The notes under the pieces were generated by a model that was not told the DNA's origin, did no database searches, and was given only the letters and a program-made list of their open reading frames with translations. From assembly GCF_000406145.1 (NCBI RefSeq), contig NZ_CM001976.1:3101337-3133336 (forward strand): 32,000 nt of DNA, given 5' to 3'. The position numbers and the translations under genes were made by a program. The stretch's first letter is position 1; the number at the start of each line of letters is the position of its first letter. Positions 1 through 21,800 of the stretch are shown here, piece after piece. This DNA comes from Dickeya dadantii NCPPB 898. Lineage in GTDB: Bacteria; Pseudomonadota; Gammaproteobacteria; Enterobacterales; Enterobacteriaceae.

Positions 1-3000
1 CACGTTGCCGTTATAAATATCCAGCTTGCTATGCTCAGAGGCCGGGCGAGCAATAAAGCATTCCAGTTTCGTCAGCAGATCATCCATGCTCGTCGCCACG
101 ATGGCCAACCGATGATCAAGCGTGACACGCCCAATCTGGCTGGTGTAGGCCAGATCAGCGAGATGAAGCGCGCTTCCCTGCTGCGTAACAAAGTCACGCA
201 TCTCGACGGCGTAAGCCGCCAGACGCTCCGCCCGGTGTGCCGACAGCACCACTATTTGCGGCCGGTTCTCGGCGTTATCCCTGACGACAGGTGTGTGATC
301 ACGACTGCGCATGAGCGCCTCTTCAGGGGACTCAACCACCACAAATGCGGTAGAACCGCCCATGCCATAGGCGTTAATCCCCGCCAAACGCGTGCCTCTG
401 GCATTGGTGCGCCATTCCTGCGCCTCGCGCGGGAACAGGAACACAGACGTCTCGTGTTCGAACGACGTATTGACGCGATCAAGGTTGACACAGGGCGACA
501 GACGACCGTGCTGCATGCTCAACAGCACCTTAATCAATGAACAAACGCCCGATGCCGCTTCCATATGCCCAAGGTTGGCCTTGGTTCCCAACGCGCAAAA
601 ATGTTGCGCGTGAGTGTGGCGACGCAGCGCGTTGGACAGCGCCTTCAGTTCAATCGGATCGCCCAACTCGGTCGCCGCACCGTGGCTTTCGATATAAGTC
701 AGCTCGTTAACGTCGATACGCGCCTCGTCCAGCGCCCGAACGGCGGTTTCCTCCATCACGGCCAGATTCGGCAAATATTGCCCTGCCCCCGTGCCCGCAT
801 GGCCGATGCTTGAACCGCGCAGCACGCCATAAATATGGTCGCCATCCGCCAGTGCGGCGCTCAGGCGCTTCAGTACCACCATGCCGCTGCCTTCGCTTGG
901 AATCAGGCCATTGGCGCGCTCATCGAAGGTATGTTCCTTGCCGTCCGAAGAGAGCACGTTCATCTCCTGGAGCAGCATATATTTACTGGGGTGGAGGCTA
1001 AGGTTTATGCCGCCGGCGAGCGCCATATCACACTCACCACCGAGAATGGCCTTACGTGCGATGTGCACGCTCGTCAGCGATGAGGCACAGGTGGTGGCAA
1101 CGCTGAAACTCGGGCCGCGCAGATTCATCAGGAACGAAATGCGATTCGCCAGCTCACTGACGACAGAACCGGCCCCCGGATATCGACCCGTGCGGGCATA
1201 AAGTTCGGCCATGACCCAGGTGAAATCTTCATTCATCGCGCCGACATACACGCCCACTTGCTGAGACGTGAGCGCTGACGGGGTGTAACCGGCGTTCTCC
1301 AGGGCATGCCAGGCGGAACGCAGCAAAACACGCACCTGAGGATCGAGACGACTGGCTTCATCACTGCTCATGCGGAACATCTCAGGATCAAAGACATTCA
1401 CGTTGCTGAGGAAACCGCCGCGATTCACGTAACGCGGATTGCCGTTATCGTCCGGCGTGATAGCCCAACGCGCATTCGGGATGGTGGTCAGGTTCTCTTT
1501 GCCCGCCTGAATATCCGCCCAGAAATCCGCCAGATTCTCGGCGCCGGGGAACTCGCCCGCCACACCGATAATCGCCACGGCATCACTGGCGGCATTCACA
1601 CTGGCTGATAACGATGAGCGGGCAGCATGCAACCCCAAGGTATTCGTGGGCGCGTTAGGCATAGCCCGTTTGGCATAAGGCACGGCAGGCGCGTCGGCGT
1701 GATGGCTGTTCACCGTCTCTGCGGTAAGATGCGGCGGCGTCTCTGCCGGCACCTGCCGGCTCTCCTGCGTTGCGCCATAACGTTCGCACAGATACCCGGC
1801 CAGTTTGGCCGTGGTATTAAACTCAAACGGCGCCGTTTTCGGCAGCCCGTCATACTCTTTCTCAAGCACGGCGCGCAATTCCATCAGCATGATGGAATCC
1901 ATACCTAACTGCTCAAAGGTGGCATCCACGGCGATATCGCCGGCGGGAAGCTTGATGATGGCCGAAATACGCTCCCTCAGCGCGTTCTCGCTCTGCATAT
2001 AGGCGCTGCTGCCGGGCGGCGTCGGCTCAACGGCATGTTGCTTGCTGGCCGCGACATTCACGTGCGCCGGCGGTGCAGAGCGCGCCACCTCATCGGCCTG
2101 AATGCGCAGGGCACGGGCAACCTTGTTACGGTCCCCAACCACAACCAGCAATGCAGGGCGTTGTTCGAGCAGCGCGCGTTCGAGGGCGATAATGCCTGCC
2201 TCCTGGTCCAATGCCGCCATGCCGGAGAACGCAAACAGGGTGGCATCCTGTTGTTCGATGTTCATCTGACCGCTGGCCCACAGCGGCCAGTTGATAGAGA
2301 CAGTCTGACCGGCGCGCAGTCCTTTTTTGACCAGGTTGTTGCGCCATACCGCATGGCTATCCATAAAGCGATTACCTGCGGCGTAAGCCCCTGAACCCAA
2401 GTCGCCGAGCACGGCAGAAACGGAAGAGAAGTTGACGAAGACGGAGAGCGGCTCCTGCGCCGTTGCACGGTCGAGGGCCACCAGACCGTCTACCTTCGGC
2501 CCAATCAGCGCGTAAAATTCAGCATCTTGCAGCGCGGTCATCGGTGTTGCGCTGGCGACGCCCGCGCAGTGCAGCACGCCGTCTACTGCGCCGAATGCGG
2601 CTTTGGCTTGTGCAATCAACGCGTCAGCCTGCCCTTCCTGCGCCACATCCGCCGCGATATAGCGCACCTCGGCCCCCAGTTCACGCATCCTAACCAGTTG
2701 CTGCTGGACGGCATCACCTGGCTGGGCCGAGCGGCCGCTCAACACGATACGGGCCTGATAACGGGATGCCAGATAGTGCGCTATCAGCAGCCCCAGCTTG
2801 CCGGCACCGCCGGTGATCACATAGTGACCGCGATGGACGAAGCTCAGGTGCGGTTCGTTGCCGTTTCCGTTGCCATCGGCCTGAGGCGGGGTGATTTCGC
2901 TCAACGTGCGCTGGTAGCGAGCGCCATGTCGATAGGCCAGCTCGACGCCGGCGAGCGGGGTCGGGCGCGGTACCCATTCCTGATAAATCGCACTCGCCAG

Positions 3001-6000
3001 CGCCGCTACGTCATCCGCATCGCTACGCAAGGTGAACAGCTCAAAGCGGTGGTTAATCGTCAGCAACGAGCGGGCATAACCGCTGGCTGCATCGTGCTGT
3101 GGCTCAACCTGATCAGTCTGTGCGGTATAGACGTTAGCGCAGCGCAGCGCCTGCCCCGGCGTTACCGTTTCCAGCGCCACAAACAGGTGCCGTAACGACT
3201 GCAGTCCGGCGTGTAATAGCGGCGCGGCCCCAACGGCCGGGAAGTCATCAAAGTGCTTATCCGCGCCGATTGCATGCACGATGTGGGTAGGCCACATCTG
3301 CTGTGCGGCCAACTGCTCACACAATGTCTGTACGCTGGTTTGAGATTGTGTATCGACGCTGAATCGATGGCTATCGTGCTGGGTAAACGCACTGGCTGGC
3401 GTCACCGCTATCACGCTGGCGTCGTCGCCGTAACGCGCGCGCAGCGCCTCGGCCAGCGTCTCGTCATCGCTGAGCACCAACACCCGTACCGCCGCAGCAC
3501 TCACCGCGGCACCCGATGTCGTCTCCGGCAGTGGCGATGCCTGCCACTCATAGGCATAGTACTGCACGTCTTGCGCGGTCACAGACTGCGCCGTACTGGC
3601 ATCACTCTCCAGTCTACGAGCGGCGAAGTCTTTCAGGCGCGCCAGCACCCGGCCGGTGGTATCCACCAGCGTAATATCGTGCTTTTGAATATTGCCGCCC
3701 ACACTCTGGCCCGACACACTCGACTGCGCTGGCGTCACATAGGCATAACACTCTGTGCCAAGCGGATGGCGCAACTCCAGCTCGCCGAGGAAGAACGGCA
3801 CGATCGGCGTTGAATACGCAGAGGGCTCCAGCCCGACCGCCAGACAGGTACGCAGCGCGCCGTCCAACAGCGACGGATGCAGATAAAACGCATCCGCGGA
3901 ATGTACCCCATCAGGCAGGCGCAAATGACTCAGCGCAGAATCAGCGAAGCGGTAACGTTCACGCGTCACCTGATAGCTGGGGCCATAGGCAAAACCCATT
4001 TTGGCAAAATCAGCATAGATGGCCGCCTGATCGCTTTCGTGTTGGCCGCGGTTACGCAGCGCGTCAAGGTCGATCCATTCATCGGCAATCTCGGTCGTTG
4101 TCGGGCGATAAACCAATTCCGCCTCTACCGAGAGCACATCGGTGTGACGGTTATGGATCGCCACCTGCACGCTTTCGCCATCCGAGTGCGCCAGGTCGAT
4201 TTCCACCTCCACCGGCTCGTCGTCCACCTCGATAGCGTTCATCCACATCAGGTTGCGCATCGTCCCGACGGCCCAATCGTTTCCGATCGCCAGCTGGCCC
4301 GCGGCATGTATCATCTCGATATAGGCCGAGCCGGGTAAGATCACCCGTGCCTCGGCGCTACCAATCACATGGTCACGCAGATAGGGCTCCTGCCCGGTCA
4401 GCTGTTTGATAAATCTCTGCTGCGACAGCGTGGAGGTATTTTCATCTATCAACGGGTGCAGCGATTTAGCGCGGCGTGACTCGCCTGGTTCCGAAGGCAG
4501 CGCCAGCCAATGGCTGCGCGTCATCAACGGCAACGCGGGGAATGAAACCCGACGCACCGCGCCAGATGCCCCACTATCGGCAAAGAGTAACGGCGCGAAC
4601 TGTTGCCAGTTCACATCCAGCATCGCGGTCCACAAGCGGCCCAAACGCAGGAGCTGGCGTTCTTGTACCAACCCGGCCACCAGCTCATCAAGCTGCTTGC
4701 CCTCAAGGATGGTATCCAGACGTTCGCCGCCGCCGGCAACGCGCCCACGAAACAGCTGTTTCGCCGCGCCGTCCTGCCGGTATTGCTCCAACTGACTCAG
4801 TAAATCGCCCAGGCTGCTCGCCACCACCGCGAGACGTTCCGTCATGGCGTCGCGCCCGACCAGCGAAGAAAATGCCAGAGAGTCAAAACCGGGCGCCGTC
4901 TGCGGTTCATATAACGCCTGACGGAGGAAGCTCACCATCCGCGCTACATACAGCGATAAACGTTCTTCGCTATCCGCCGAGAGCACGAACAAGCGCGGTT
5001 CACCACGATGGGCGGCGGTCGATGCAAGTTTTGACGCGTCTTCTTGTGGCGCTTCTTCTATCAGCACATGGGCGTTTGAACCACCCGCACCGAAGGCGCT
5101 CAGGCCGGCACGACGGGGATGATCGGCGGCCGACTCCCACGCCTCAAGCGCCTGCACCACGCGGAACGGCGAGGCAGCGAAGTTAATTTTCCCGTTCAGC
5201 GTCTGTGAGTGCAGCGACGGCACCAGCTTACGATGACGCATCTGTAGCAGGATTTTGGTCAACCCGGCGATGCCGGCGGCGGACTCAAGATGCCCGATAT
5301 TGCTTTTCACCGAACCGATACGGCAGTGACCAGACTGCAGCTCGTTGTTGATCCCCCGCTGTGTATTGATGCGCGAAAAGGCGTTGGCAAGTCCGGAGAT
5401 TTCGATCGGATCCCCCAGCATCGTGCCGGTGCCATGCGCTTCAATGTAGTCCACCGACGCGGGGCGCCAGCCGGCACGCTCGAATGCCGTGCTGATAACG
5501 TTGCTTTGCGCCGCCTGATTCGGCACCGTAAAGCCGCTGGTTTTGCCGCCGTGGTTAATGGCGGTGGCTTTGATCACGCCATAAATTTGGTCGCCATCCG
5601 CTATCGCCTGTTGCAACGGCTTAAGCAACACCGCGCCCACGCCTTCCCCTGGGACATAACCATCGCCGCCTTCGCCGAAGGCCCGGCAACGCCCGTCGCT
5701 GGAAAGGAATTGGTTTTGCCCCAGTTGGTAGTACTTCATCGGGTGCACAATCAAATTGACGCCACCGGCTATCGCCATTTTACAGTCGCCGCTTTGGAGC
5801 GCCTGACACGCGATATGTAGCGCGGTGAGCGACGACGAGCACATGGTGTCCAGCGCCACGCTGGGGCCATTCAGATTGAAGTAGAACGACACCCGGTTGG
5901 CTACCGATGAGTGCAACGACATGGCCCAGCCGGATTCGTGCTGTTTCTCCGTCGTTTCGATGCATTGATACTGCCCCCACATCACCCCGACATACACGCC

Positions 6001-9000
6001 GACCTGCGATTTGCTCAGTGCGTGACGCGAATAGCTGGCATCCGAAACACACTCCCAGGCGGTTTGCAGGAACAAGCGCTCCTGCGGATCCAACAGCTCC
6101 GCTTCGCGGGGCGATATGTTGAAATATTGGCTATCGAACTGATCAATATCATCGATAAACCCGCCCCATTTGCTGTAGACCTTGTTCTTGGGCCCCCGCA
6201 CTGGCGAATAATGTTGGTGATAGTCCCAGCGCGACAGAGGAATGTCGGTAATGCTGTCTACGCCGCCGGTGAGGTTGGCCCAGAATTCATCCACATTTTT
6301 GGCGCCCGGATAGCGGCCGCTCAGCCCGATAACCGCAATGTCATCTTTTACGCCAACCACGCCAACCGGTTCAGTGTCGCCCGACGCATTACGTCTCAGG
6401 GCATCAATACGCGGCGTGTTCAGCAGACTAGCCAGCGTCGGGCGCGCAGCCGGCACCGGCGACGCGGCGTTGTGTTGAAGCGCAGGCTGCTGCGCGGCCT
6501 GTATCGCCTCGGCCCATTCGGCCAGCATCTGATAACGGTAGACGGCGGTGGCACTAACGCCGGTAAAACGCGCATCCAACTCATGCTGTAAGCGAATAAG
6601 AGTGATGGTATCCAGCGGCCACTGCCAGAGCGGCGTCAGTGCAGAGTGGGTTGTCGCTGCCGAACCGACCGCCGCCGTCAAACTGTCAAACACCCCATCG
6701 CCTGTCGCCGATACCGGGTTTGCCGATCGGTCCGGTTCAGCAGCAGGCTCCGCAGCATGAGTGGCGTTTTGCTGCGACAACGCTACCGGCGCCGGCGTGA
6801 CGCTCGCCGTCGCGGGCTGCAAGGCGGCGACCTGCTCGGGATAGCTCTCGCAGAGAAAATCCGCCAGGGAGTCGAGGTCCTGATATTCGTAGAACAGCGT
6901 TTGCGACACCTCGCCGACGCTGGCCGCAAGCTTGCCGTTCAAGGCCAAAATCATCATCGAATCAAGGCCGTAATCCGACAACTGTGTTGCAGGCCGCACC
7001 TCGCCGGCATCTAACCTGGTGACCTCAACTACGCTGGCTATCAGATAATCCAGCACCCCGTCACGTACCGAACGGGCGTTCACAGGCTGCGCTTCACTCG
7101 GTTGCGCCACATTCGGTTGCACCCCACCCGCCGCAGACTCCGCGGGCGTTACGTCAGCAGGCGCCGCCACCTGTTCGGGATAGTTTTCAATCAGGTAATT
7201 AGCCAGTGAAGCGAGGTCTTCGTATTCATAGAAGAGTGTCTGAGGAAGGCCGTCAAAGGTTGCCGAAAGCTTCTCGTTCAAGGCCAGAATCATCATCGAA
7301 TCAAGACCGTAATTCGATAACAGCTCCGTGGCGGTCACGTCGCCGGCATCCAGTTTGGTCACGCTAATGACATGAGCAATCAGCGTATTAACGATAGCCT
7401 CGCGCGAAGGGACCGCGCCAGGCTGCTGACGCGGCGTGGCGGCAATAACCGATGCCGCCGCAACTGGCTGAAGCGTATTGGCGCCGCCTGCGCTCATTTG
7501 CGCGGCGGGCTTCGCGCTCTGCGCCGCACGTAAGGTTCTCATGCCCAAATGCGGCACCGCTTGCGTTTGCAACCGGGTGAGCCTTATCACCACATTGCCG
7601 ATGCTATCGAGCAAGTCGATATGGTAGCTGGCCGTCGCCGCCGAACCGTGGGCGTTATCCCGGCGGGCGTAGGCATAGCAAATCCCGTCAATCGGCCTGA
7701 ATATCTGCAACCGTGCCAGAGCGACCGGAACGTCAAGCGTATTGGTCGTCGCGCTAAAGCCGCCGATGCCCAGCGCGGTGCGTAATGCGCCGTCCAGCAG
7801 TGAAGGCGGCAGGATAAATGGCTGTACCACCGGCGCTATCTGCAAGCCGTCAGGAAACTTCAGCTCCGCCAGCGCCTCTTCGGCATTGGCATACAGACAC
7901 TCCAGCACCTGAAAAGCCGGGCCGAGCGTAAACCCACGCTGCCTGAAAGCCACATCGATATCATTGCGCTGATAAACCTGACCGTTAGTCAGCAGCCTTT
8001 GCAGGTTAGCCGGCTCTGGCTGAGGCGATGTCTCCTCGCACAGGCGGCCGCTGCCGTAGACATGACGTTTGTCGCCCTCCGCCCGGTAAATCTCAAAATC
8101 GAGCCCGCCCTGCGAGGGCGCCAGCGAGATAGCTATATCTATTGCATCACGCTCTATTGCATCACTGGCGACCATAATGGGCTGGCGCCACTTAATATCC
8201 TGCACCTGAGAAAGGACGGGCCTGTCGCCCGAAAGCGGCAGCGCATGACCTTGCAACGCCAGCTCGCTGGCGCTCAATGCCATCTCGATGTAGGCGGCGC
8301 CGGGCAGAATACGGTTATCGCCAAGGCGGTGATCGTTCAGTAAAAATTCGTCCGCGCGCAGCCGTTTGCGGAATGCCTGCGAGGCCAGAGTAGAAATATT
8401 GGCGTCAATCAGCGGGTGCAGCGCGGCAGCACCCGACACCACCGGCCCCAAAAGCACGGCAGGTGAGGTCGGCGCCCAGCAATCCTGGCGCTGGAACGCA
8501 TAACCGGGCAGAGAAACACGCCGACGGGAATGCGCCGCATGCAACTGGCTCCATTCAACCACATGGCCGTTGGCCCATGCCTCGCCCAGCGCACCCAGGC
8601 GCCCCTGTTTTATCCACTCAGCCAACGGCGGCGTTGAGGTAGCCTGACGCGCATTGTCGCGATGGCCGGTGATCAATCCCGATAATTGCTGTTGGGCATA
8701 GGCGCGCAGCATGTTGACCGCATCCGCCGCGACGTCTACGACAAACGCCAGTCGATATTCGTGCGCAACGCGTCCAACTTGCAGTGTATAAGCGACATCC
8801 TGTAGCGACAGTTCAGGATGCGGTTCAACGGCAGAATATTGTTCAATAAAGGTCGCAAGCTGCCCGGCCATGGCTCGCAGCGCGGTTTCACGACGAGCAG
8901 AAAGCACGATCAACGCCGGCTTACCCTTGTCATCGGTAGCCGGCGGCGGCGCAATATATTCTTCAACGATCAAATGCGCGTTGCTGCCCCCCGCCCCGAA

Positions 9001-12000
9001 CGAGCTAATGCCTGCGATACGCGGAATCTCGCTTGCGACGCGCTGACCATTCTCTTGCGTCACGTCGAGTACAGGACGTTGCCATGGTTCCAGCGACTGC
9101 TGAAGACGGAATGGCCCACCCTGAAAGTCGATAAACGGGTTAATCGCTTTTGACTGAATCGACGGCACCAGCGTCCGGTGTTTTATCTGCAGCAGCACTT
9201 TGGTCAACGCCGACATGCCGGCGGCGGCTTCCAGGTGACCGATATTGGCCTTGACCGAGCCGATGGCGCAGTATTTGGTATTCTCTCCGGCGATCGAAAA
9301 CGCCTTATTCAACCCGCTGATTTCAATCGGATCGCCAAGTTTAGTGCCCGTACCATGCGCTTCGACATAGCTGATATGACGCGGATTAACGTTGGCCGCC
9401 TCCAGCGCGTCAACGATCAACTCAGCCTGACGTTTCGCGTTAGGAACCGTAAAGCCGGATGTTTTACCGCCGTGGTTCACCGCCGTGCCGCGAATGATGC
9501 CATAGATATGGTCACCCTCTTCCCGGGCCTGAGACAGAGGCTTAAGCACCACCGCCCCAACCCCCTCTCCCGGCACATACCCCGTGCCGCCTTCACCAAA
9601 ACTGCGGCAGCGACCGTCCGAAGAGAGGAAGTGCATATTGGATAGCAGATGATACTTATAAGGGTGCAGCGACAGGTTGACGCCGCCTGCAATCGCAACC
9701 GGGACATCGCCGCTGCGAATGGCATGACAGGCAATATGGATAGCCGTCAATGACGATGAACAGGCCGTGTCCAGCGCCATACTGGGGCCGGAGAAGTTAA
9801 AGAAGTGCGAAACACGGTTCGCTACCGACCAATAAGATGAATGGGAGGTCGTCCATTCGTCTACGGGGCTGGTGATGGCATGAAGCTGGTAATCCCCCCA
9901 CATCATGCCGACATAGACGCCGACGCGGTTTTCGCGCCCTACCTGCAAGGGTGCGAGCTTATCTGCCGTATATCCAGAGTCTTCAATGGCATGAGCGACG
10001 GTTTCAAGGAACAGCCACTCATTCGGGTCCATGATTTCCGTTTCTTTCGGGGAAATATTGAAATAACGGAGATCGAAGCGTTCAACGTCGGAAAGGAATC
10101 CTCCCCACCGGCTGTAACTTTTCCCTGGCGTTGCCGCGCCTTCCTGAAACCAGCGTTCGTCCCAGCGTTCAGACGGGACATCGATAATGCAGTCACGCCC
10201 TTGCGTCAGATTGCGCCAGAACTGATCGAGATTGTCCGCCTGGGGGTAACGTCCGGCGATACCGATAATGGCAATATCGTCATCGTTTACGACACGCGGC
10301 GATCCCTGCAACCGCTGCACTGGCGCAGCCGCGCGTACGACATCGGCAGCCGGCAAGGCGGCGTTGACGGTCGGTTTTACCACCGCGCTCGCCGACGTCG
10401 TGCCCCGCAGGCCATTACAGGCCTCATGACAGTTCTCAAGCAGGAAGCGGCTAAGCTCTTCCATGGTTTGATATTCAAAGAACAGCGTCATCGGCAACCC
10501 GCTGCCGAATGTCGTTTTCAACGCATTGACCAGTTCAATAACCACGACCGAATCAAAGCCATAGTCACGAAAGAAGCCATTACGCTCGAAATGCGCCGGG
10601 ATTTGTAACTTTCTGGCAAACAGGTCGGACAAATACCGAATAACGACATCCTGTAACGAGTGACGGTCGTCGGCATCGGGAGCGCTCAACGCCTCGCGCA
10701 CCGGCGCCATATCGACAACGCCCAGAACCTCCTCAATGCGCGCATGTTCTCCCGGCATCACCACCATCTGAGCAGCCTGGCTTTGCAGGGCATAATCAAA
10801 AATGGCGATACCGTCTTCGGTCAGCAACGGAATAATCCCAAAATGGCTCTTCAGGAAGCCCTCTTCTTTATCAGTAAGACGCATGCCGCCGTCTTTCCAG
10901 TAGGGCCAGTTCAGAGACAGCGTTTTACCGCTACGTTCGCCCCGTTGTTGCAGTGCGTTACGCTGATAAGAAAAATAATCTTCGAAGGCATTGCCAAAGG
11001 CATAGTCGCATTGACCCATATTGCCTAAGACGCCGGTGACGGAAGAGAAGAGCGCAAAGAAGTCGAGCGGCTGATCGTGTGTGGCGTCATCAAGCAGCCA
11101 GGTGCCGATTGCCTTCGGGGTGACGACCCGCTCAAAGGCTTCACTGCTTTTACGCAGAATAAAGTTATCTTCGATGACGCCGGCAGAATGGATGATACCG
11201 TTCAGCGAGCGGCCCGATGCGCGGATCGCCTCGATTAAACCCTGAACGCTATCCGGATCGCTGATGTCACACGCCAGATAAATGGCATTGCCGCCGAGTT
11301 CATTCAGCTCATCAAGCTGCTGCCGCCGCTTTTCATCCAGCGCGGAGCGTCCGCTCAAATAGACGGTGGCGTCATAGCATGAGCACAGGTAACGAGCGAA
11401 AATCAGCCCCAACGCGCCCAACCCGCCGGTAATCAGGTAGGTTCCCTGCCGGCGCAAAGAAGCCGGGGCGGATAACGGCGGGTTAACCGCATCGGCCCCC
11501 TTCGCGCGCAACGCGGAGCCGGCATACGTTGATAACGGTGCATCCTTGACAAAGCGACGCACCAGACGAGCCCCCTGCACATAGCGCACGTCGGCATCTT
11601 TGGATACGTCGCTGAATTCGCTTTTGATCAACGCCGGGATAGTAACGCCAGCCTGTTTTTCACCATCAATAACCGCGTCGCAATGCACCACATGGCCGAT
11701 ATAGGCTGGTTTTTCGACACGCAAAGTCCGGTAGAAACCACTGATGGCGGAGATATCCGGCACGCTCTCGCCGGCGAGATAGAAATGGACAAACCGAACC
11801 TTTTTGACCTTACGCATCAGCGCTTTAGTCAGCGCGAAGAGGCTGTGAGGGCCACGACTCAGGCGAGCGACCCAATCATCGCCGGTCTGTTCCGCATTGA
11901 CCCAAAGCACCTGCTCAAACGTTGCTCCCCGCGACAACAGCGCATCCACCGCCGCAATGAAGTCGTCTCCATTGCCCGGGCGAACCCACGCGCGATCCGG

Positions 12001-14928
12001 CTCACGATCCACCTCCGGCGTGGATGCAAACTGGATTCGTTGCACCTGAGGCGGATTTTCCGATTGCGCGATAAGGTCTGCGAACCAGTCGACATCCTGC
12101 TCGCTACCCACCAGCACCACCTGCTGCATGGGCACGTCGGCCTCTGACACCGGTTTCTCAATCCAGTATGGCTGATAGAGGTTGACGGTTTCAGGTAGCG
12201 TAAGCGGCGGATGTTCGGCTTGCGGCTGATGTTTTACGGCAAGGCTGTCATCGAGAACGCGCAAGCTTAAGCCGCGGAATATCAGCGCGACGCGTTCAGG
12301 GTTGTTCGCATCGCTGACATGAATATCCACCTTGAAGACACCATCGTGGATAGGCTTCTCGCCTGACAGGGTGATGGTTGACGTCATGGCTGAACTGCAA
12401 GGATGCAGTAACTCCAGTCCCTCCAAAGAGAATGGAATGACCATCGCCCCCGGCTCATTCCCCGGCCGCAATGCGCGCAGCTTCTCGGTCGCCCAGACGA
12501 CCGCCGCCTGCAAGGCGCCATCCGCCAACGACGGATGAATAACAAAATCCGCGCTCTGCGCATCAGGCAGTATCAGATCGGCGACACAGGCACGCTCATC
12601 GAAAGCGATCTGGCTGATGGATCTCAGACCTGCGCCGTAGCACATCTGCAAACTATCGAGCAGTTGGTAGCAGGCGGCCGCATCGCGCGCGTGGGCATCG
12701 TCAGCCATCACCGCGGTCGGCAAAGCAGGCAGCGCATCCCCGGAAAACCCTATAGTCCCCCGGCAGTAAAGCGTTTGATCGTTGTCGAGAACCTGGAATA
12801 ACCACGATGTGCCTGGCTCATGCGGATCAAGCTGAATGTATATATCCGCAGCCGCGTCGTGAAATTCCAGCGGCCTTAACCAGGTCACCTGGGAGAAACG
12901 GATTGTGTCGACATTTTCTAAATCAATCGCATCAGTGAAGGCGGCGCGTACCAGTTCCAGATAGGCCACCCCCGGCAGGATCGTCTGGCCGCCGATGCGA
13001 TGACCGGCAATAAAAAACTCATCGCCCTGAAGCAGCGCTTTATAACGGGAACTCCCAATGTTCACTACACGGTGACGCTGAGCGCGCAAGGCGGCACGCT
13101 GCGAACCGGCCTTATCGCTTTTGCTGATCCAAAAATGATTATGGACAAATGGATAACCAGGAAGCGCAATTCGTTGCGGATGCTCCCCCTCAAATAGCCG
13201 GGTCCAATCCAATTGCACGCCACGCTCATAATATTCACGCAGTTGTTGCAAAGGCCGTTTCACCGCCGGGGCACCGGCTTGATGAATAGCATCAAGCAGC
13301 GCTGCGCCCGCAACACGGGCTTTTTCCACTTCATCCGCGGCATGTTCTTTCAAATCCGGCGGGCCTTGTTCAACCGCCTTTTCTAACGCCTGGATAATCT
13401 TCTGAACATCGCGGCCCACACACCCGTAGCGATAAGCAAAGTGGTCCCGGCGAGTCAATAATGTCGCACTCACATCACGCAGTGATGCGTCGGGATGTTC
13501 ACTCAACCACTGGATCAAATCTTTTTGGCGCTGCCACAGTGCAGCCGGACTTTTTGCAGAAAGCGCTATCAAATACTCATTGCGCTTCGCGGACTTGCCA
13601 GACGCGGGCTTACGACCCACAGGCTCAGGGGCTTCTTCCAATACAATATGGGCATTGGTCCCCCCGAACCCGAACGAACTCACCCCCGCGCGGCGCGGCG
13701 TATTAGCGTCAATACGTTGCCAGTCAGTGGTTTCATCAACGAAGAAAAAAGGCGTCGAGGTCGTATCAATTTTAGGATTGAGAGCGGAGAAATTGCGTAA
13801 TGGAGGCAGTTTGCGGTGTTTAAACGCCTGCAGAACTTTGATGACACCCGCCACACCGGCTGCCGCTTCAAGGTGGCCGATATTGCTTTTGATGGACGTC
13901 ACGCCGCAGAAAGCCTCATCCAGCGCGATTCCCTGCTGTTGAGCGAGCGTACTAAATGCTTTGGTAAGCCCCTCGAATTCAATGGGATCGCCCTTCGGTG
14001 TCCCTGTTCCATGAGCCTCGACTAAGCCAATAGAGCGAACAGGCACGCCGGCGTGCCTGTTCGCGGCAATAATCACATCAGCCTGCGCTTCGGCACTGGG
14101 GTAGGTGAGCGTGTAGGTGGTGCCACAATGGTTAATGGCACTCCCTTTGATGACCCCGTGAATCACATCACCGTCAGCCAGCGCATTATCTAATGGCTTA
14201 AGCAATAAGACGCCCGCCCCTTCTCCACGGACATAACCATCAGCACAGCTATCAAAAGAGTGACACGCACCGGTGGGCGACAGCATTCCCATTTTGGCAA
14301 AAGACTGATGCCGGGTAGACGTCAAAATAAGATTAACGCCACCGCTAATAGCAACGTCACAGTCGCCATTAGTGATGGCCTGAATAGCGCTGTGAATAGC
14401 GTTTAATGAACCCGAGCAGGCGGTATCAATGGCAACACTCGGACCATGAAAACCAAAGAAATGTGAAATACGGTTAGCAATAATAGAAGTGGCGGTGCCC
14501 GTGGAATGATGCGCTTCTATTGGCGCATTGGCATTTTCCTGTAGCTCTTTATAATCGTTATTGAAAACACCAATAATAACGCCAACTTTATTCCCTCGAA
14601 GCGTTGATGGAGGGATTCCTGCATCCTCCAAACAGGACCAGGTAAGTTCCAGCATGATCCTCTGTTGAGGATCCATGGTTTCCGCAACCTTAGGAAGAAC
14701 ACCAAAGAACTGGTTATCAAAACAATCAACGTTATTAACAAAGGCAGCCCACCGAGTTTCACTGGCATCAGGCCACTGTAAAGATTTTCGGTTATATGAC
14801 GCCGCATTTTTTTGAATGTCAGAAATTTTAGAGACTGAATTACGGCGATGAATAATATTATCCCACAAATCATTATAGTTGTTTGCATCAGGAAAACGAC
14901 AAGAAATGCCTATAATTGCAATATCCAT
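1..14928 (-). CDS. Giant multimodular trans-AT-type polyketide synthase, 5' portion (>=4976 aa in window, C-terminus beyond base 1)
   Basis: Hand translation from the ATG at 14928-14926 stays open in one frame down to base 1. The frame was verified at motif codons: KS Cys 14416-14418, 9760-9762, 5839-5841, 1087-1089; ACP Ser 10549-10551, 7297-7299, 6958-6960, 1894-1896. N-terminus is MDIAIIGISCRFPDANNYNDLWDN. The window ends in ...SEHSKLDIYNGNV. It is not in the ORF track because no stop codon lies in the window. Confidence 0.9.
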   Translation of the reverse strand, partial: MDIAIIGISCRFPDANNYNDLWDNIIHRRNSVSKISDIQKNAASYNRKSLQWPDASETRWAAFVNNVDCFDNQFFGVLPKVAETMDPQQRIMLELTWSCLEDAGIPPSTLRGNKVGVIIGVFNNDYKELQENANAPIEAHHSTGTATSIIANRISHFFGFHGPSVAIDTACSGSLNAIHSAIQAITNGDCDVAISGGVNLILTSTRHQSFAKMGMLSPTGACHSFDSCADGYVRGEGAGVLLLKPLDNALADGDVIHGVIKGSAINHCGTTYTLTYPSAEAQADVIIAANRHAGVPVRSIGLVEAHGTGTPKGDPIEFEGLTKAFSTLAQQQGIALDEAFCGVTSIKSNIGHLEAAAGVAGVIKVLQAFKHRKLPPLRNFSALNPKIDTTSTPFFFVDETTDWQRIDANTPRRAGVSSFGFGGTNAHIVLEEAPEPVGRKPASGKSAKRNEYLIALSAKSPAALWQRQKDLIQWLSEHPDASLRDVSATLLTRRDHFAYRYGCVGRDVQKIIQALEKAVEQGPPDLKEHAADEVEKARVAGAALLDAIHQAGAPAVKRPLQQLREYYERGVQLDWTRLFEGEHPQRIALPGYPFVHNHFWISKSDKAGSQRAALRAQRHRVVNIGSSRYKALLQGDEFFIAGHRIGGQTILPGVAYLELVRAAFTDAIDLENVDTIRFSQVTWLRPLEFHDAAADIYIQLDPHEPGTSWLFQVLDNDQTLYCRGTIGFSGDALPALPTAVMADDAHARDAAACYQLLDSLQMCYGAGLRSISQIAFDERACVADLILPDAQSADFVIHPSLADGALQAAVVWATEKLRALRPGNEPGAMVIPFSLEGLELLHPCSSAMTSTITLSGEKPIHDGVFKVDIHVSDANNPERVALIFRGLSLRVLDDSLAVKHQPQAEHPPLTLPETVNLYQPYWIEKPVSEADVPMQQVVLVGSEQDVDWFADLIAQSENPPQVQRIQFASTPEVDREPDRAWVRPGNGDDFIAAVDALLSRGATFEQVLWVNAEQTGDDWVARLSRGPHSLFALTKALMRKVKKVRFVHFYLAGESVPDISAISGFYRTLRVEKPAYIGHVVHCDAVIDGEKQAGVTIPALIKSEFSDVSKDADVRYVQGARLVRRFVKDAPLSTYAGSALRAKGADAVNPPLSAPASLRRQGTYLITGGLGALGLIFARYLCSCYDATVYLSGRSALDEKRRQQLDELNELGGNAIYLACDISDPDSVQGLIEAIRASGRSLNGIIHSAGVIEDNFILRKSSEAFERVVTPKAIGTWLLDDATHDQPLDFFALFSSVTGVLGNMGQCDYAFGNAFEDYFSYQRNALQQRGERSGKTLSLNWPYWKDGGMRLTDKEEGFLKSHFGIIPLLTEDGIAIFDYALQSQAAQMVVMPGEHARIEEVLGVVDMAPVREALSAPDADDRHSLQDVVIRYLSDLFARKLQIPAHFERNGFFRDYGFDSVVVIELVNALKTTFGSGLPMTLFFEYQTMEELSRFLLENCHEACNGLRGTTSASAVVKPTVNAALPAADVVRAAAPVQRLQGSPRVVNDDDIAIIGIAGRYPQADNLDQFWRNLTQGRDCIIDVPSERWDERWFQEGAATPGKSYSRWGGFLSDVERFDLRYFNISPKETEIMDPNEWLFLETVAHAIEDSGYTADKLAPLQVGRENRVGVYVGMMWGDYQLHAITSPVDEWTTSHSSYWSVANRVSHFFNFSGPSMALDTACSSSLTAIHIACHAIRSGDVPVAIAGGVNLSLHPYKYHLLSNMHFLSSDGRCRSFGEGGTGYVPGEGVGAVVLKPLSQAREEGDHIYGIIRGTAVNHGGKTSGFTVPNAKRQAELIVDALEAANVNPRHISYVEAHGTGTKLGDPIEISGLNKAFSIAGENTKYCAIGSVKANIGHLEAAAGMSALTKVLLQIKHRTLVPSIQSKAINPFIDFQGGPFRLQQSLEPWQRPVLDVTQENGQRVASEIPRIAGISSFGAGGSNAHLIVEEYIAPPPATDDKGKPALIVLSARRETALRAMAGQLATFIEQYSAVEPHPELSLQDVAYTLQVGRVAHEYRLAFVVDVAADAVNMLRAYAQQQLSGLITGHRDNARQATSTPPLAEWIKQGRLGALGEAWANGHVVEWSQLHAAHSRRRVSLPGYAFQRQDCWAPTSPAVLLGPVVSGAAALHPLIDANISTLASQAFRKRLRADEFLLNDHRLGDNRILPGAAYIEMALSASELALQGHALPLSGDRPVLSQVQDIKWRQPIMVASDAIERDAIDIAISLAPSQGGLDFEIYRAEGDKRHVYGSGRLCEETSPQPEPANLQRLLTNGQVYQRNDIDVAFRQRGFTLGPAFQVLECLYANAEEALAELKFPDGLQIAPVVQPFILPPSLLDGALRTALGIGGFSATTNTLDVPVALARLQIFRPIDGICYAYARRDNAHGSAATASYHIDLLDSIGNVVIRLTRLQTQAVPHLGMRTLRAAQSAKPAAQMSAGGANTLQPVAAASVIAATPRQQPGAVPSREAIVNTLIAHVISVTKLDAGDVTATELLSNYGLDSMMILALNEKLSATFDGLPQTLFYEYEDLASLANYLIENYPEQVAAPADVTPAESAAGGVQPNVAQPSEAQPVNARSVRDGVLDYLIASVVEVTRLDAGEVRPATQLSDYGLDSMMILALNGKLAASVGEVSQTLFYEYQDLDSLADFLCESYPEQVAALQPATASVTPAPVALSQQNATHAAEPAAEPDRSANPVSATGDGVFDSLTAAVGSAATTHSALTPLWQWPLDTITLIRLQHELDARFTGVSATAVYRYQMLAEWAEAIQAAQQPALQHNAASPVPAARPTLASLLNTPRIDALRRNASGDTEPVGVVGVKDDIAVIGLSGRYPGAKNVDEFWANLTGGVDSITDIPLSRWDYHQHYSPVRGPKNKVYSKWGGFIDDIDQFDSQYFNISPREAELLDPQERLFLQTAWECVSDASYSRHALSKSQVGVYVGVMWGQYQCIETTEKQHESGWAMSLHSSVANRVSFYFNLNGPSVALDTMCSSSLTALHIACQALQSGDCKMAIAGGVNLIVHPMKYYQLGQNQFLSSDGRCRAFGEGGDGYVPGEGVGAVLLKPLQQAIADGDQIYGVIKATAINHGGKTSGFTVPNQAAQSNVISTAFERAGWRPASVDYIEAHGTGTMLGDPIEISGLANAFSRINTQRGINNELQSGHCRIGSVKSNIGHLESAAGIAGLTKILLQMRHRKLVPSLHSQTLNGKINFAASPFRVVQALEAWESAADHPRRAGLSAFGAGGSNAHVLIEEAPQEDASKLASTAAHRGEPRLFVLSADSEERLSLYVARMVSFLRQALYEPQTAPGFDSLAFSSLVGRDAMTERLAVVASSLGDLLSQLEQYRQDGAAKQLFRGRVAGGGERLDTILEGKQLDELVAGLVQERQLLRLGRLWTAMLDVNWQQFAPLLFADSGASGAVRRVSFPALPLMTRSHWLALPSEPGESRRAKSLHPLIDENTSTLSQQRFIKQLTGQEPYLRDHVIGSAEARVILPGSAYIEMIHAAGQLAIGNDWAVGTMRNLMWMNAIEVDDEPVEVEIDLAHSDGESVQVAIHNRHTDVLSVEAELVYRPTTTEIADEWIDLDALRNRGQHESDQAAIYADFAKMGFAYGPSYQVTRERYRFADSALSHLRLPDGVHSADAFYLHPSLLDGALRTCLAVGLEPSAYSTPIVPFFLGELELRHPLGTECYAYVTPAQSSVSGQSVGGNIQKHDITLVDTTGRVLARLKDFAARRLESDASTAQSVTAQDVQYYAYEWQASPLPETTSGAAVSAAAVRVLVLSDDETLAEALRARYGDDASVIAVTPASAFTQHDSHRFSVDTQSQTSVQTLCEQLAAQQMWPTHIVHAIGADKHFDDFPAVGAAPLLHAGLQSLRHLFVALETVTPGQALRCANVYTAQTDQVEPQHDAASGYARSLLTINHRFELFTLRSDADDVAALASAIYQEWVPRPTPLAGVELAYRHGARYQRTLSEITPPQADGNGNGNEPHLSFVHRGHYVITGGAGKLGLLIAHYLASRYQARIVLSGRSAQPGDAVQQQLVRMRELGAEVRYIAADVAQEGQADALIAQAKAAFGAVDGVLHCAGVASATPMTALQDAEFYALIGPKVDGLVALDRATAQEPLSVFVNFSSVSAVLGDLGSGAYAAGNRFMDSHAVWRNNLVKKGLRAGQTVSINWPLWASGQMNIEQQDATLFAFSGMAALDQEAGIIALERALLEQRPALLVVVGDRNKVARALRIQADEVARSAPPAHVNVAASKQHAVEPTPPGSSAYMQSENALRERISAIIKLPAGDIAVDATFEQLGMDSIMLMELRAVLEKEYDGLPKTAPFEFNTTAKLAGYLCERYGATQESRQVPAETPPHLTAETVNSHHADAPAVPYAKRAMPNAPTNTLGLHAARSSLSASVNAASDAVAIIGVAGEFPGAENLADFWADIQAGKENLTTIPNARWAITPDDNGNPRYVNRGGFLSNVNVFDPEMFRMSSDEASRLDPQVRVLLRSAWHALENAGYTPSALTSQQVGVYVGAMNEDFTWVMAELYARTGRYPGAGSVVSELANRISFLMNLRGPSFSVATTCASSLTSVHIARKAILGGECDMALAGGINLSLHPSKYMLLQEMNVLSSDGKEHTFDERANGLIPSEGSGMVVLKRLSAALADGDHIYGVLRGSSIGHAGTGAGQYLPNLAVMEETAVRALDEARIDVNELTYIESHGAATELGDPIELKALSNALRRHTHAQHFCALGTKANLGHMEAASGVCSLIKVLLSMQHGRLSPCVNLDRVNTSFEHETSVFLFPREAQEWRTNARGTRLAGINAYGMGGSTAFVVVESPEEALMRSRDHTPVVRDNAENRPQIVVLSAHRAERLAAYAVEMRDFVTQQGSALHLADLAYTSQIGRVTLDHRLAIVATSMDDLLTKLECFIARPASEHSKLDIYNGNV
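335..1590 (-). other. PKS domain KS4
   Basis: SDAVAIIGVAGEFPGAEN, TTCASSLTSVHIARKAI (Cys 1087-1089), IESHGAATELGDPIE (HGAA rather than HGTG, His retained), GTKANLGHMEAASG, GGSTAFVVVE. Confidence 0.8.
1777..1995 (-). other. PKS domain ACP3
   Basis: FEQLGMDSIMLMELRAVLEKEYDGLPKTAPFEFNTTAKLAGYLCERY. Ser codon at 1894-1896. Confidence 0.8.
2105..3490 (-). other. PKS domain KR2
   Basis: GHYVITGGAGKLGLLIAHYL (about 2785-2830). HCAGVASATPM has no Asp at the LDD position. Catalytic region is SSVSAVLGDLGSGAYAAGNRF. Confidence 0.75.
3610..4465 (-). other. PKS domain DH3
   Basis: HPLIDENTSTL, YLRDHVIGSAEARVILPGSAYIEM (His 4369-4371), YLHPSLLDGALRTCLA. Confidence 0.75.
5058..6350 (-). other. PKS domain KS3 (predicted active)
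   Basis: KDDIAVIGLSGRYPGAKN, DTMCSSSLTALHIACQAL (Cys 5839-5841), IEAHGTGTMLGDPIE, GSVKSNIGHLESAAG, GGSNAHVLIEE. Confidence 0.85.
6495..6715 (-). other. Degenerate carrier-protein-like domain (Thr in place of the phosphopantetheinyl Ser)
   Basis: TPLWQWPLDTITLIRLQHELDARFTGVSATAVYRYQMLAEWAEAIQAA follows the ACP helix II/III pattern, but the D-S position is D-T (Thr codon 6607-6609). Confidence 0.5.
6835..7070 (-). other. PKS domain ACP2b (second of a tandem pair)
   Basis: QLSDYGLDSMMILALNGKLAASVGEVSQTLFYEYQDLDSLADFLCESYPEQ. Ser codon at 6958-6960. Confidence 0.8.
7175..7410 (-). other. PKS domain ACP2a (first of a tandem pair)
   Basis: LLSNYGLDSMMILALNEKLSATFDGLPQTLFYEYEDLASLANYLIENYPEQ. Ser codon at 7297-7299. 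Confidence 0.8.
7565..8425 (-). other. PKS domain DH2 (dehydratase-fold, in a module without KR)
   Basis: HPLIDANISTL..., LLNDHRLGDNRILPGAAYIEM (His 8329-8331), ILPPSLLDGALRTALG. Confidence 0.7.
8965..10290 (-). other. PKS domain KS2 (predicted active)
   Basis: DDDIAIIGIAGRYPQADN, DTACSSSLTAIHIACHAI (Cys 9760-9762), VEAHGTGTKLGDPIE, GSVKANIGHLEAAAG, GGSNAHLIVEE. Confidence 0.85.
10430..10665 (-). other. PKS domain ACP1
   Basis: FFRDYGFDSVVVIELVNALKTTFGSGLPMTLFFEYQTMEELSRFL. Phosphopantetheine Ser codon at 10549-10551. Confidence 0.8.
10730..12130 (-). other. PKS domain KR1 (ketoreductase, structural + catalytic subdomains)
   Basis: Rossmann motif GTYLITGGLGALGLIFARYL (about 11410-11445). 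HSAGVIEDNFI sits at the LDD position. Catalytic region is SSVTGVLGNMGQCDYAFGNAF. Confidence 0.75.
12250..13165 (-). other. PKS domain DH1 (dehydratase)
   Basis: LPGYPFVHNHFW, then FIAGHRIGGQTILPGVAYLEL (His codon 13000-13002) and later IHPSLADGALQ. Starts only about 156 aa after the KS1 end, too short for an AT domain. Confidence 0.75.
13634..14928 (-). other. PKS domain KS1 (ketosynthase, predicted active)
   Basis: Motifs DTACSGSLNAIH (Cys 14416-14418), VEAHGTGTPKGDPIE, SIKSNIGHLEAAAG, GGTNAHIVLEE. Boundaries approximate. Confidence 0.85.
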
Positions 14929-15915
14929 TATTCACATCCGTATGTTTATGTTTATTATTTCTCGAAATAATCAATGCCATTTTCGCAGCCAAATAACTCT
15001 CTGGATGCAGAACTCATCAATAGTTAAATAGTTTGGTATTCCATATACCATTACAAACAACTTAGTGGATATTGCATTAAAAACATTCACCCATCTAATG
15101 TAATTTAATTCTTTTTATTGTCATAATGTAACCAACAAACAATAAATACAGCAAAAATAAAAAATAATTAATTGTAGTTATTTGATTTTAATGTATTTTT
15201 TATTGAAACAAAAAAACACACTTCCAGAGCATTTCAAGATATTCGACACTATTAAAGTTAAAATACCCTAATGAAATCACGTAGTGGAAATGTTATTACA
15301 ATAATTATCTGTTGATTCTTAATTAAATAACCCCTGCGTTTCCTAAAGCATATTCACGGTGAATAACTTACTCGAAAATGAAATTAAAATGTCATATTAC
15401 TGTCATTTAAAATCACTTAGCAAACGAAGAGTATACTGCTGCGTGGCTTAATAAATATCGATGCTATGCGTGAAATTAGATGTAATTAGACAGCATCTCT
15501 TCTTCGAAAATCTTTCAATGCTTGATAGCATCAACCAGCGGTTGGCAGGGAACCATGCCCGATAGAAGTAGACCACAGTTCCCCACTCACCAAGTGGCAG
15601 AAACTGCTATATATCCTGTAAAGCCGTCTTCGGTAAGCACCTGAATTTACGTGGCGATGATGCGATGTGTGGGTAGCAGACGTGATGGTTATCAACCATA
15701 TATTGAGTAATATAATGCAGACTGGAATAGCGGAAAATGTTAAAGCCGACTGAAAGTGACAATATTATGACAGTAGTGGGCAGGGAATTTATTTATTCAA
15801 CAAGGCCAGATTGAGGGTGAGATTATTTTATTTGTTCAACATGAAACTGTCAGCTACCATAGCGATTGCTGCATTGTTATTGGATGATAAACGGTATATT
15901 TGACACGGAGTTATT

Positions 15916-16419
15916 ATGTTAGAGATTGTAACAGGGATGCCAGCATGGGTACTTATTATTTTGATTTCGACCACCTTCTATTGTATAAGTTTTTGCTTTG
16001 AAAAAGATGTTAGCATTAAGTTTTTGTTACTTATTCCAGGCTGTTTTATGATTTTTTCGATTATCTCTTTACTACAGCAAGGTCACATCCTGGTTTCAAG
16101 TCTGGTGTGGTTATTGGGCTGTATGTTAGGAGGGAGCGTAGCAAAGAGAATTTTTTCACCTCAAGCCTACAGCCTGGGCCGCAAGGAAGGTACAGTTACG
16201 GTGCCGGGAACGTATTCCATTATTACAATTTTTTTACTCTACTTCCCTCTTCGCTACTATATCGGCTATCGTCAGGCGATCGCGGTTGATCATACTCTCA
16301 GCACTACGATGATGTTGCTATTAGCCGTATCGTCAGGGGGCGTTGTCGGTTTTTTCGCCCTCCGCTCGTATATTATCTTTTTGCGCTATAAGAAACTGAA
16401 TATTAAAAAAATAGCGTAG
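15916..16419 (+). CDS. Hypothetical polytopic inner-membrane protein (167 aa)
   Basis: ORF-track ORF with ATG preceded by ACGGAG 6 nt upstream. It has 4-5 hydrophobic helices (AWVLIILISTTFYCISF, FLLLIPGCFMIFSIISLL, LVSSLVWLLGCMLGG, YSIITIFLLYF, MMLLLAVSSGGVVGFFAL). AT-rich, unlike the neighbouring PKS. No family recognised. Confidence 0.6.
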   Translation: MLEIVTGMPAWVLIILISTTFYCISFCFEKDVSIKFLLLIPGCFMIFSIISLLQQGHILVSSLVWLLGCMLGGSVAKRIFSPQAYSLGRKEGTVTVPGTYSIITIFLLYFPLRYYIGYRQAIAVDHTLSTTMMLLLAVSSGGVVGFFALRSYIIFLRYKKLNIKKIA

Positions 16420-16518
16420 CCTGTTGGACCATCCCGTGTTCGGGAGCGTTCAAATTAGCAGAGCATCTGCTTTTCAATAAAGGTTGCAATAACCTTTTCA
16501 TGCATCTCAACACAGCGC

Positions 16519-16650
16519 GTGGGAAAAACAGGTGCTTTTTCTAATCAACGTAAGGCTCGATTCACTGAACACCAGACCATCGCCGTCCTGAAGTCTGCCG
16601 AAGCTGGATGAAGCGTAAAAATGTTTGCCGTAAGGCCTATCGCTAAATGT
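16519..16650 (+). mobile_element. IS3-family (IS407-group-like) transposase orfA N-terminal remnant, broken by stop/frameshift
   Basis: GTG-GKTGAFSNQRKARFTEHQTIAVLKSAEAG-stop, then in the +1 frame KNVCRKAYR. This matches the RFTxEQIxxxLKxAEAGxxVKxVCRK N-terminal pattern of IS3-family OrfA. No orfB and no recognisable inverted repeats. Confidence 0.5.
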
Positions 16651-17087
16651 GTCCGTTAATTACCACCCTGCCCCCCAATCGCTTTTCATGTCAGCTTATC
16701 TATTCGACTCGTTGCCCTTCGGCGCGCCCTTTGGGGTGCTTTCCCTTATATTCCCGTAGACGAATTGGCTACTGGGGAGACATTGATACTTGGGGGCTGA
16801 AATTTCTTGCCGATGTACGGCTGAGGCAGCCCCATGTTGAAGCCGTGATGATGGATCGGGAAACACTGCTATCCCACGTTCAACAAGGAGTATGCGAAAA
16901 GCGACCAACAGAATTACCTGAGCAAGGTTTGACACCTGCCGAACGTACCTTGTTTGAAGTGTTACGTACTAATCGATACGGCGTCAGCCGACTGGAACAA
17001 GAGCGTCGGTTTCAGGACTACGTTGAACAGAGGTTAGAGCCGGGCACGCAGTTCATCGCGCTGCCGGCGCGCCTGCTTCAGGGTTGA
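16650..17087 (+). pseudogene. jetD: C-terminal remnant of a Wadjet JetD-like (DUF2220/Toprim-fold) gene
   Basis: GYWGDIDTWGLKFLADVRLRQPHVEAVMMDRETLLSH...GLTPAERTLFEVLRTNRYGVSRLEQERR matches the conserved YWGDxDxxGxxIL...MDxxTL...RLEQE C-terminus of JetD as I remember it. Only about 140 codons are present. There is no jetABC upstream, and the remnant abuts the IS stub. Confidence 0.55.
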
Positions 17088-17288
17088 AGAGCGGTGTACC
17101 ACGCACAGGGAAGCGACTCAGCAAACAACCCACATCCGCAACGCACCCGATTTTCGGGCACTAATTTGTGTGCTACGTCGGCGTGCTTTACAGTGATTTT
17201 CAGGGGATTTTTCTGGATGTGTAGCAGAGCGATCGCTCTGTTGAACCCGCAATCTACAGATTTTGGTGGACATCTATAGAAAAAAAAT

Positions 17289-17364
<76 letters not shown>

Positions 17365-17427
17365 ATTCTACAGAACATCTTGTTTATCAATAACTTTCAA
17401 TAAACTGTGTCGCTGTCGATGCGGTGC

Positions 17428-17455
17428 ATTCTACTTACCTGACGCAGTGAGTCAA
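17428..17455 (-). promoter_or_regulatory. Putative sigma70 promoter of tRNA-Gly
   Basis: Minus strand has TTGACT (17455-17450), a 16-nt spacer, TAGAAT (17433-17428), then the GC-rich discriminator GCACCGC. An A/T-rich tract lies upstream. Confidence 0.5.
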
Positions 17456-17505
17456 TAAAATTATCACCCCACCTGAATCGTTTGCTGTTTTTTAAGGCGA
17501 GGCGA

Positions 17506-18054
17506 TCAATGTTCAAGCAAATCGTGCCAGGCGGCGCTCAGGTACTGGAACATCGACCAAAACGTTAGCACGGCAGCCACGTATAACGCCGCCACGCCAG
17601 CGGCTTCGACCATACGTTCAGGCCGCCACAGCAACCCGACCAGTGCAACCATCTGCGCAGTCGTTTTGATTTTACCAATCCACGATACCGCCACGCTGCT
17701 GCGCTTACCCAGCTCCGCCATCCATTCGCGCAATGCGGAAATGATGATCTCACGGGCAATCATCGTGGCGGCAGGCAACGTAATCCACCAGGAGTGATAA
17801 TGCTCAGCCACCAGCACCAGCGCAACCGCCACCATGACCTTATCGGCCACGGGGTCCAGAAAAGCGCCAAAGCGCGTGGTTTGTTTCCAGCGACGGGCAA
17901 GAAAACCGTCAAACCAGTCGGTCACCGCCGCAAAGACAAAGATGCCTGCGCATACCATTGGTGCCCAGTTGAATGGCAGGTAAAACGCCAGCACAAAGAA
18001 TGGGATTAGCACAACACGAAACAGGGTAAGCCACGTTGGTATATTAAATCGCAT
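17506..18054 (-). CDS. pgsA: CDP-diacylglycerol--glycerol-3-phosphate 3-phosphatidyltransferase
   Basis: [27 protein letters not shown]...[11 protein letters not shown]...FLDPVADK is near-colinear with E. coli PgsA (182 aa). I chose the ATG at 18054 rather than the upstream GTG at 18078, by homology. Confidence 0.93.
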
Positions 18055-18111
18055 AGCGTCTGGGTAACTGTCTGGCACGAAAGATAATAGGGTTATGTTG
18101 CTACATTGCCT

Positions 18112-21468: not shown

Positions 21469-21800
21469 TCAAAACCCATCGGACATCAGCGCAACCCGCT
21501 ATTGCCCGATGGGGATGAGCCGCCTTCCCCGCACAATAAATAAGCAGAAATAAAAACAACAATGCGCGAATGTTGACATAATGATTTATATTTCGTCAAC
21601 AAAGCAGGCTATTGTCAGATAAATAGCCAGATAAATGGCAATATAAAAGTTTAATACTTGTGATCTATTCCGAAACAGCACGCCTTAACCCAAAATAGAG
21701 TTATTGAGTAATCATTCCGGGGAATTAAATAATGAGAAAATATTTCTGCGCGAAAATGCATTAGCATCAAAAAAAGAATAACACAAATGAAAGGAAGTGT

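Follow-up and report, generated by a model that had tools for sequence, protein, structure and literature searches.

The giant polyketide synthase gene beside pgsA and glyW in Dickeya dadantii NCPPB 898 is very probably the solA orthologue of the solanimycin cluster

In Dickeya solani MK10 / IPO2222, SolA is the only polyketide synthase (PKS) encoded by the solanimycin cluster (sol, also named ssm) (Matilla 2022, PMC9765074; Murphy 2023, PMC10204066). The published protein consists of 5,358 aa with the domain string 'KS-DH-KR-T-KS-DH-T-T-KS-DH-KR-T-KS' (Table 1, PMC9765074), and according to this architecture no ACP follows KS4 within SolA (PMC9765074). [quoted passage not shown] Deletion of solA abolishes the antifungal activity in D. 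solani (PMC9765074). The sol cluster was found in just over 100 of 382 Dickeya genomes, D. dadantii included; the tRNA genes glyW, cysT, and leuZ flank it in many strains, and other secondary-metabolite clusters occupy this site elsewhere (PMC9765074). For D. dadantii, sol/ssm is recorded as variable (mostly present) (Table 11, PMC10319131). The best non-enterobacterial matches listed were proteins of Collimonas and Lysobacter, which share 50-77% of their amino acids (PMC9765074). Since SolA carries too few modules for colinear assembly of solanimycin, an iterative mechanism was proposed (Murphy 2023, PMC10204066). The roles of module 3 and of the terminal KS4 and the complete structure of solanimycin remain unresolved in the literature (PMC10204066).

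We analyzed a stretch of 32,000 nucleotides from the genome of D. dadantii NCPPB 898 (contig NZ_CM001976.1, positions 3,101,337 to 3,133,336), which is called the window in the following. Here, a six-frame scan revealed a stop-free frame on the minus strand (window 1-14931, 4977 codons). The first start codon of this frame is an ATG at position 14928, and from there 4976 codons can be read with no stop before window base 1. An earlier note on this DNA had claimed a single gene of at least 4976 codons that had been overlooked by the ORF track. Re-translation bore this out, and we found 14.9 kb without any stop or frame break. The gene is absent from the ORF list because the listing drops open reading frames that run off the source sequence. 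Its 3' end is located past base 1 and from the 98%-identical D. dadantii contig JABEPD010000020.1 we obtained a tail of 383 codons, which brings the total length to about 5,359 aa. We are highly confident that this gene is the solA orthologue of the sol cluster and that it is located in a variable island by pgsA/glyW.

For domain assignment, Pfam was run on ten overlapping 900-aa pieces spanning all 4976 aa, and the results were combined with domain alignments. The gene and its domains are as follows:

1-14928, minus strand: very probable solA, partial (3' end past base 1), assigned by the stop-free frame, the Pfam order, and the identity to D. solani SolA
13789-14925, minus strand: KS1 (aa 2-380), Cys/His/His intact
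12250-13056, minus strand: DH1 (aa 625-893), motifs HRIGGQTILP and DGALQ
10891-11985, minus strand: KR1 (aa 982-1346), B-type-like, IED at the LDD position
10441-10635, minus strand: ACP1, motif GFDS
9154-10281, minus strand: KS2, catalytic triad intact
7549-8418, minus strand: DH2, in a module without KR
6853-7389, minus strand: ACP2a and ACP2b in tandem, two Pfam PP-binding stretches, both with GLDS
5206-6345, minus strand: KS3, catalytic triad intact
3595-4458, minus strand: DH3
2275-3486, minus strand: KR2, A-type-like, no Asp at the LDD position
1789-1983, minus strand: ACP3, motif GMDS
481-1584, minus strand: KS4, the terminal KS, Cys and both His present, divergent motifs

Thus, the Pfam order reads KS1-DH1-KR1-ACP1, KS2-DH2-ACP2a-ACP2b, KS3-DH3-KR2-ACP3, and KS4 with a linker, which corresponds to four KS, three DH, two KR, and four ACP domains when the tandem ACP2a/ACP2b is counted as two PP-binding stretches. 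This order is identical to the published SolA string when the Pfam assignment is compared with Table 1 of PMC9765074. Most of what the earlier note had read from a hand translation was confirmed by these data. The gene starts directly with a KS (KS1, aa 2-380) and without a loading module. The numbers of DH (three) and KR (two) domains were correct, and so was the reading that all four KS domains retain an intact Cys and both His residues. The alignment gave DTACSGS / HGTGT / NIGH for KS1, DTACSSS / HGTGT / NIGH for KS2, and DTMCSSS / HGTGT / NIGH for KS3. The active site of KS4 is divergent (ATTCASS / HGAAT / NLGH) but the Cys and both His are kept. The catalytic His and Asp were found in all three DH domains, and a GxDS serine is present in each of the four ACPs. 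IED at the LDD position of KR1 and the lack of the Asp at this position in KR2 were also seen in the domain alignment. The A-type-like KR2 is paired with DH3, as the earlier note had remarked, and this pair belongs to module 3, the very module whose function the literature leaves unresolved.

Some of the earlier readings had to be corrected. Four or five carrier domains had been counted, and four of them were found. The putative fifth one, a 'GFDS' at frame position 3348, belongs to the KS3 linker, and Pfam returned no PP-binding match there. The KS-to-DH gaps had been estimated at about 156, 180, and 198 aa, while the Pfam boundaries give about 245-250 aa. This stretch is filled by a RhiE-like/CurL-like linker domain, one of which follows each KS (Pfam), and its length is far too short for an acyltransferase.

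When the ten pieces covering the 4976 aa were searched for an embedded acyltransferase, no PF00698 (Acyl_transf_1) match was obtained at E<=0.01, and the GHSxG motif was found nowhere in the 4976 aa. Thus, none of the KS modules carries an integrated AT as judged by Pfam, motif, and spacing, and the previous suggestion that the modules are loaded in trans holds. A free-standing AT was found in the relatives. In JABEPD010000020.1, which shares 98.2% identity with window 1-6210, solE encodes a 628-aa free-standing tandem AT about 2.6 kb past the solA stop, and this protein carries an Acyl_transf_1 domain, two GQGS loops, and one GHSLG motif. A free-standing tandem AT is likewise located past solA in the D. 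solani and Rouxiella loci. For NCPPB 898, we infer from these loci that solE is present beyond the window. Taken together, these data support the classification of SolA as a trans-AT type I PKS.

To define the relation to D. solani SolA, we quantified the degree of identity. A D. solani SolA fragment shares 90% of its amino acids over 1360 aa (aa 437-1796), and comparison with the D. solani locus gave 91.9% amino acid identity over the last 2070 aa (aa 2907-4976) and 91.8% nucleotide identity over 6.2 kb. The 90-92% identity to D. solani SolA thus refers to aa 437-1796 and 2907-4976. For the first 899 aa, the closest named proteins in the homology search were D. solani 'PksN' (90%) and the proteins of D. 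ananatis (79%) and Rouxiella chamberiensis (70%). The protein set searched apparently lacks entries longer than about 1,575 aa, so that SolA orthologues were matched as fragments only. The window gene shares with D. solani SolA its position as first gene of the cluster, the KS opening, the domain order, the fitting size, and the pgsA-glyW tRNA hot spot. It differs by its D. dadantii host, by an amino acid divergence of 8-10%, and by the status of the product, which for this strain is a prediction. In summary, domain order, length (4976 + 383 aa vs. about 5,360 aa), identity, synteny in relatives, and the tRNA site all agree with an orthologue of SolA. Near-identity to a characterized cluster had been named beforehand as an outcome that leaves the gene real but not novel. 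This is what we found for solA (90-92% amino acid identity), and the giant PKS gene is real, correctly read, and already known.

Among trans-AT products of Dickeya and Serratia, oocydin is known best, and its cluster (ooc) resembles the locus described here in being a horizontally acquired trans-AT PKS system of plant-associated enterobacteria with an antifungal product. A weaker match to a D. dianthicola KS-ACP protein (40% identity) was also obtained. The possibility that the window gene belongs to a different trans-AT system, either as an ooc PKS gene or as part of an uncharacterized cluster with another product, is nevertheless extremely improbable. The 90-92% identity to SolA contrasts with about 40% for the other Dickeya PKS matches, the neighbors in relatives are solB-solG and not ooc genes, and a published overview scores ooc as lacking in D. 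dadantii (Table 11, PMC10319131). Genes, architecture, and product of the ooc system are different. We therefore rejected an assignment to ooc by orthology to OocJ/L/N/R/S and by ooc neighbors: the closest relatives and the neighbors are sol genes.

Reading the gene as solA, we next consider the remainder of the cluster, which can be seen in relatives. Contig JABEPD010000020.1 (D. dadantii) shares 98.2-98.5% identity with the window (bases 1-6210 and 7523-24409) and carries both the pgsA-side locus and the solE-side locus. After solA, it encodes solB, solC, solD, solE, solF, and solG in this order. The gene calls on the D. solani locus reproduced the published sizes (SolA 5358, SolB 329, SolD 89, SolE 628, SolF 2300, SolG 1163 aa); SolC was called with 414 aa vs. 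the published 415. Order and sizes of solB-solG are the same in the D. dadantii contig as in D. solani, so that the solB-solG neighbors of the D. solani cluster are matched in near-identical D. dadantii contigs. From the synteny met in the D. dadantii contig and in D. solani, we infer the same arrangement for NCPPB 898, beyond the window. A beta-branching cassette and an enoyl reductase, which the earlier note had proposed to look for, were not among solB-solG downstream of solA in the relatives, and neither is to be expected in a sol cluster.

These neighbors also bear on the question of whether the D. dadantii allele of a sol-type cluster yields a distinct congener, via altered iteration counts or tailoring. 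With 8-10% amino acid divergence from D. solani SolA, minor differences in the product are conceivable, and for sol clusters the literature describes six configurations of the downstream genes as well as losses of domains. Against this, the domain order and the motif status are the same as in published SolA, and order and sizes of the neighbors in the D. dadantii contig do not differ from those in D. solani. We consider a distinct congener very unlikely and retain the reading as solA of a solanimycin-type cluster like that of D. solani.

Clusters of this type are not confined to Dickeya. Scanning contigs with KS4, we found related PKS in Rouxiella, Serratia, Pantoea, Erwinia, Collimonas, Paraherbaspirillum, and Lysobacter, with Rouxiella as best match (86%) and no Dickeya genome among the matches to this set of contigs. 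The sol-type clusters of Rouxiella, Erwinia, Pantoea, Collimonas, Paraherbaspirillum, and Lysobacter share the same KS4 region with 54-86% amino acid identity. Downstream of the PKS in the Rouxiella sp. locus, Pfam identified an NAD-dependent epimerase/dehydratase-type reductase, then a class I/II aminotransferase, a tandem AT, and an NRPS, and the Pantoea, Erwinia, Collimonas, and Paraherbaspirillum loci contain open frames that match in size and order. A SolE homologue was also found in a more distant lineage, at a locus with 75-79% nucleotide identity to the window. The clusters outside Dickeya differ from that of D. solani by their lower identity and by their other genomic contexts.

The flank of the window codes for pgsA, uvrC, uvrY, and cycA and for three tRNAs, and Rfam detected only these three tRNAs in the window. 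The exact PgsA protein of the window also occurs in D. dadantii 3937 (CP002038) and in further Dickeya assemblies, and with these loci the DNA between positions 17034 and 24412 shares 98.5-99.5% identity. One of the three tRNA genes marks the border of the island:

17289-17364, minus strand: tRNA-Gly(GCC), glyW, adjoining pgsA, border of the island and integration hot spot, 2.4 kb from the solA start

Thus, the tRNA hot spot described for sol is represented here by glyW beside pgsA; cysT and leuZ are absent from the window and are presumably located on the far side. On the opposite side of this flank, window 24333-32000 comprises a tRNA-Asn(GTT) and, after it, a P4-type integrase (24588-25862) with cargo that is rich in AT (30-38% G+C). 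This cargo involves a two-gene Lamassu system with LmuB (27920-29683, minus strand, E=1.6e-255) and LmuA (29692-30816, minus strand, E=4.8e-149) and an orphan Hcp (26969-27454, minus strand). Beyond 24412, homology to D. dadantii 3937 is lost, which indicates that strain 3937 has different cargo at the same tRNA-Asn. A 432-aa open reading frame runs antisense inside uvrC (18532-19830, plus strand), and such a frame has most likely arisen by chance in coding DNA rich in G+C.

A foreign origin of the PKS block had previously been suggested on the basis of its higher G+C content. The block is richer in G+C, but only weakly so (57.9% for solA vs. 55.5% for uvrC/pgsA), and the G+C content at third codon positions is the same (0.643 in solA vs. 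0.64-0.67 in uvrC/pgsA). With so weak a difference, base composition was dropped as evidence for horizontal transfer. Comparison of the site among strains was more informative. At pgsA-glyW, a complete Wadjet operon (jetABCD) and then an NRPS gene are found in strain 3937, which has no solA there, and in several other strains. Two other assemblies share the layout of the window (a 146-aa JetD_C stub, a 167-aa open reading frame, and the giant PKS), and these two loci are 98.1-98.5% identical to the window across the PKS, which in one of them was called with 5380 aa. Such strain-to-strain presence or absence at identical flanks indicates that the sol island is a strain-variable insertion at a tRNA hot spot, which argues for horizontal acquisition more strongly than base composition does.

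The segment between glyW and the solA leader distinguishes the window from the D. solani sol locus, since it contains a jetD stub and a 167-aa membrane ORF. The stub is a 3' remnant of jetD coding for 146 aa (16647-17087, plus strand), and its residues 38-130 are 91% identical to residues 295-387 of 3937 JetD. The second frame (15916-16419, plus strand, 41% G+C) codes for 167 aa, is very hydrophobic, and separates the jetD stub from the solA leader. This frame has also been called as a gene in two related assemblies, and no match was obtained in Pfam, NCBIfam, or PADLOC. In strain 3937, an 858-aa PCP-C-TE gene is located just past the Wadjet operon (locus positions 18352-20549), and this gene may either be what is left of solH (C-A-P-C-TE) or open a different NRPS cluster. 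It looks as if a single hot spot is taken by the Wadjet operon in some strains and by the sol island in others, and as if a deletion has left a scar in NCPPB 898. There is a slim chance of a finding beyond the known system, namely that the D. dadantii sol allele makes a different solanimycin congener or that the jetD/solA junction records a direct swap between the anti-plasmid Wadjet island and an antibiotic cluster at one tRNA hot spot.

Upstream of solA, the earlier note had described an AT-rich leader of about 1 kb, and this was confirmed:

14929-15915, minus strand: AT-rich region upstream of solA (987 bp, 33.7% G+C), the presumed P_solA control region

When the solA leader was scanned for promoters and terminators, the counts did not exceed those of shuffled sequence. 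Quorum sensing (ExpI/R, Vfm), RsmA, and acidic pH affect the activity of the solA promoter in D. solani (PMC9765074), and SlyA binds and activates this promoter (bioRxiv 10.64898/2026.09.28.754996). By analogy, the AT-rich leader would fit this type of promoter regulation.

SolA is a three-and-a-half-module trans-AT PKS, and its ACPs would receive their malonyl units in trans from SolE, the free-standing AT-AT/acyl-hydrolase. In the published model (PMC10204066), one KS-DH-KR-ACP module (module 1 or 3) would iterate to form a methyl-terminated tetradecahexaenoyl thioester. The KR-less module 2 would then add one C2 unit, and a beta-keto C16 thioester would result (PMC10204066). Alpha-oxidation of this intermediate by the P450 SolI, transamination by SolC, and reduction by SolB would lead to a beta-hydroxy-alpha-amino acyl group, to which the NRPSs would add Gly, five dehydroalanines (by one iteratively used Ser module), and Val (PMC10204066). 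For NCPPB 898, iteration, the product, and expression control via the AT-rich leader would carry over from D. solani by orthology.

An intact solA might also be part of a cluster that has been inactivated elsewhere in this strain and is decayed or non-producing. In the D. dadantii assemblies GCA_013168465.1 and GCA_013168475.1, solA was called in three parts, and solB and solG are also interrupted; frame breaks in solA, solB, and solG apply to the assembly of contig JABEPD010000020.1 as well, and they may reflect pseudogenisation or sequencing/assembly errors. Moreover, solanimycin-type activity was observed in only about half of 15 Dickeya strains, which mirrored the genomic predictions (Matilla et al., PMC9765074). 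We consider such decay unlikely for NCPPB 898, because the 14.9 kb of solA in the window are unbroken with all catalytic motifs kept and because a second D. dadantii-type assembly carries solA as a single 5380-aa call. The solA orthologue of a solanimycin cluster remains the preferred reading, and NCPPB 898 should be predicted to be a solanimycin producer.

The window contributes just one further D. dadantii-type copy of solA, which previous work has mutated, analyzed, and surveyed in 382 Dickeya genomes. The practical value of our data is correct annotation: a 15-kb gene that was dropped at the window edge should be labeled solA. Solanimycin is a potent broad-spectrum antifungal, which matters for crop protection, and its unusual biosynthesis, with an apparently iterative trans-AT PKS module and an iterative single NRPS module, matters for enzymology.
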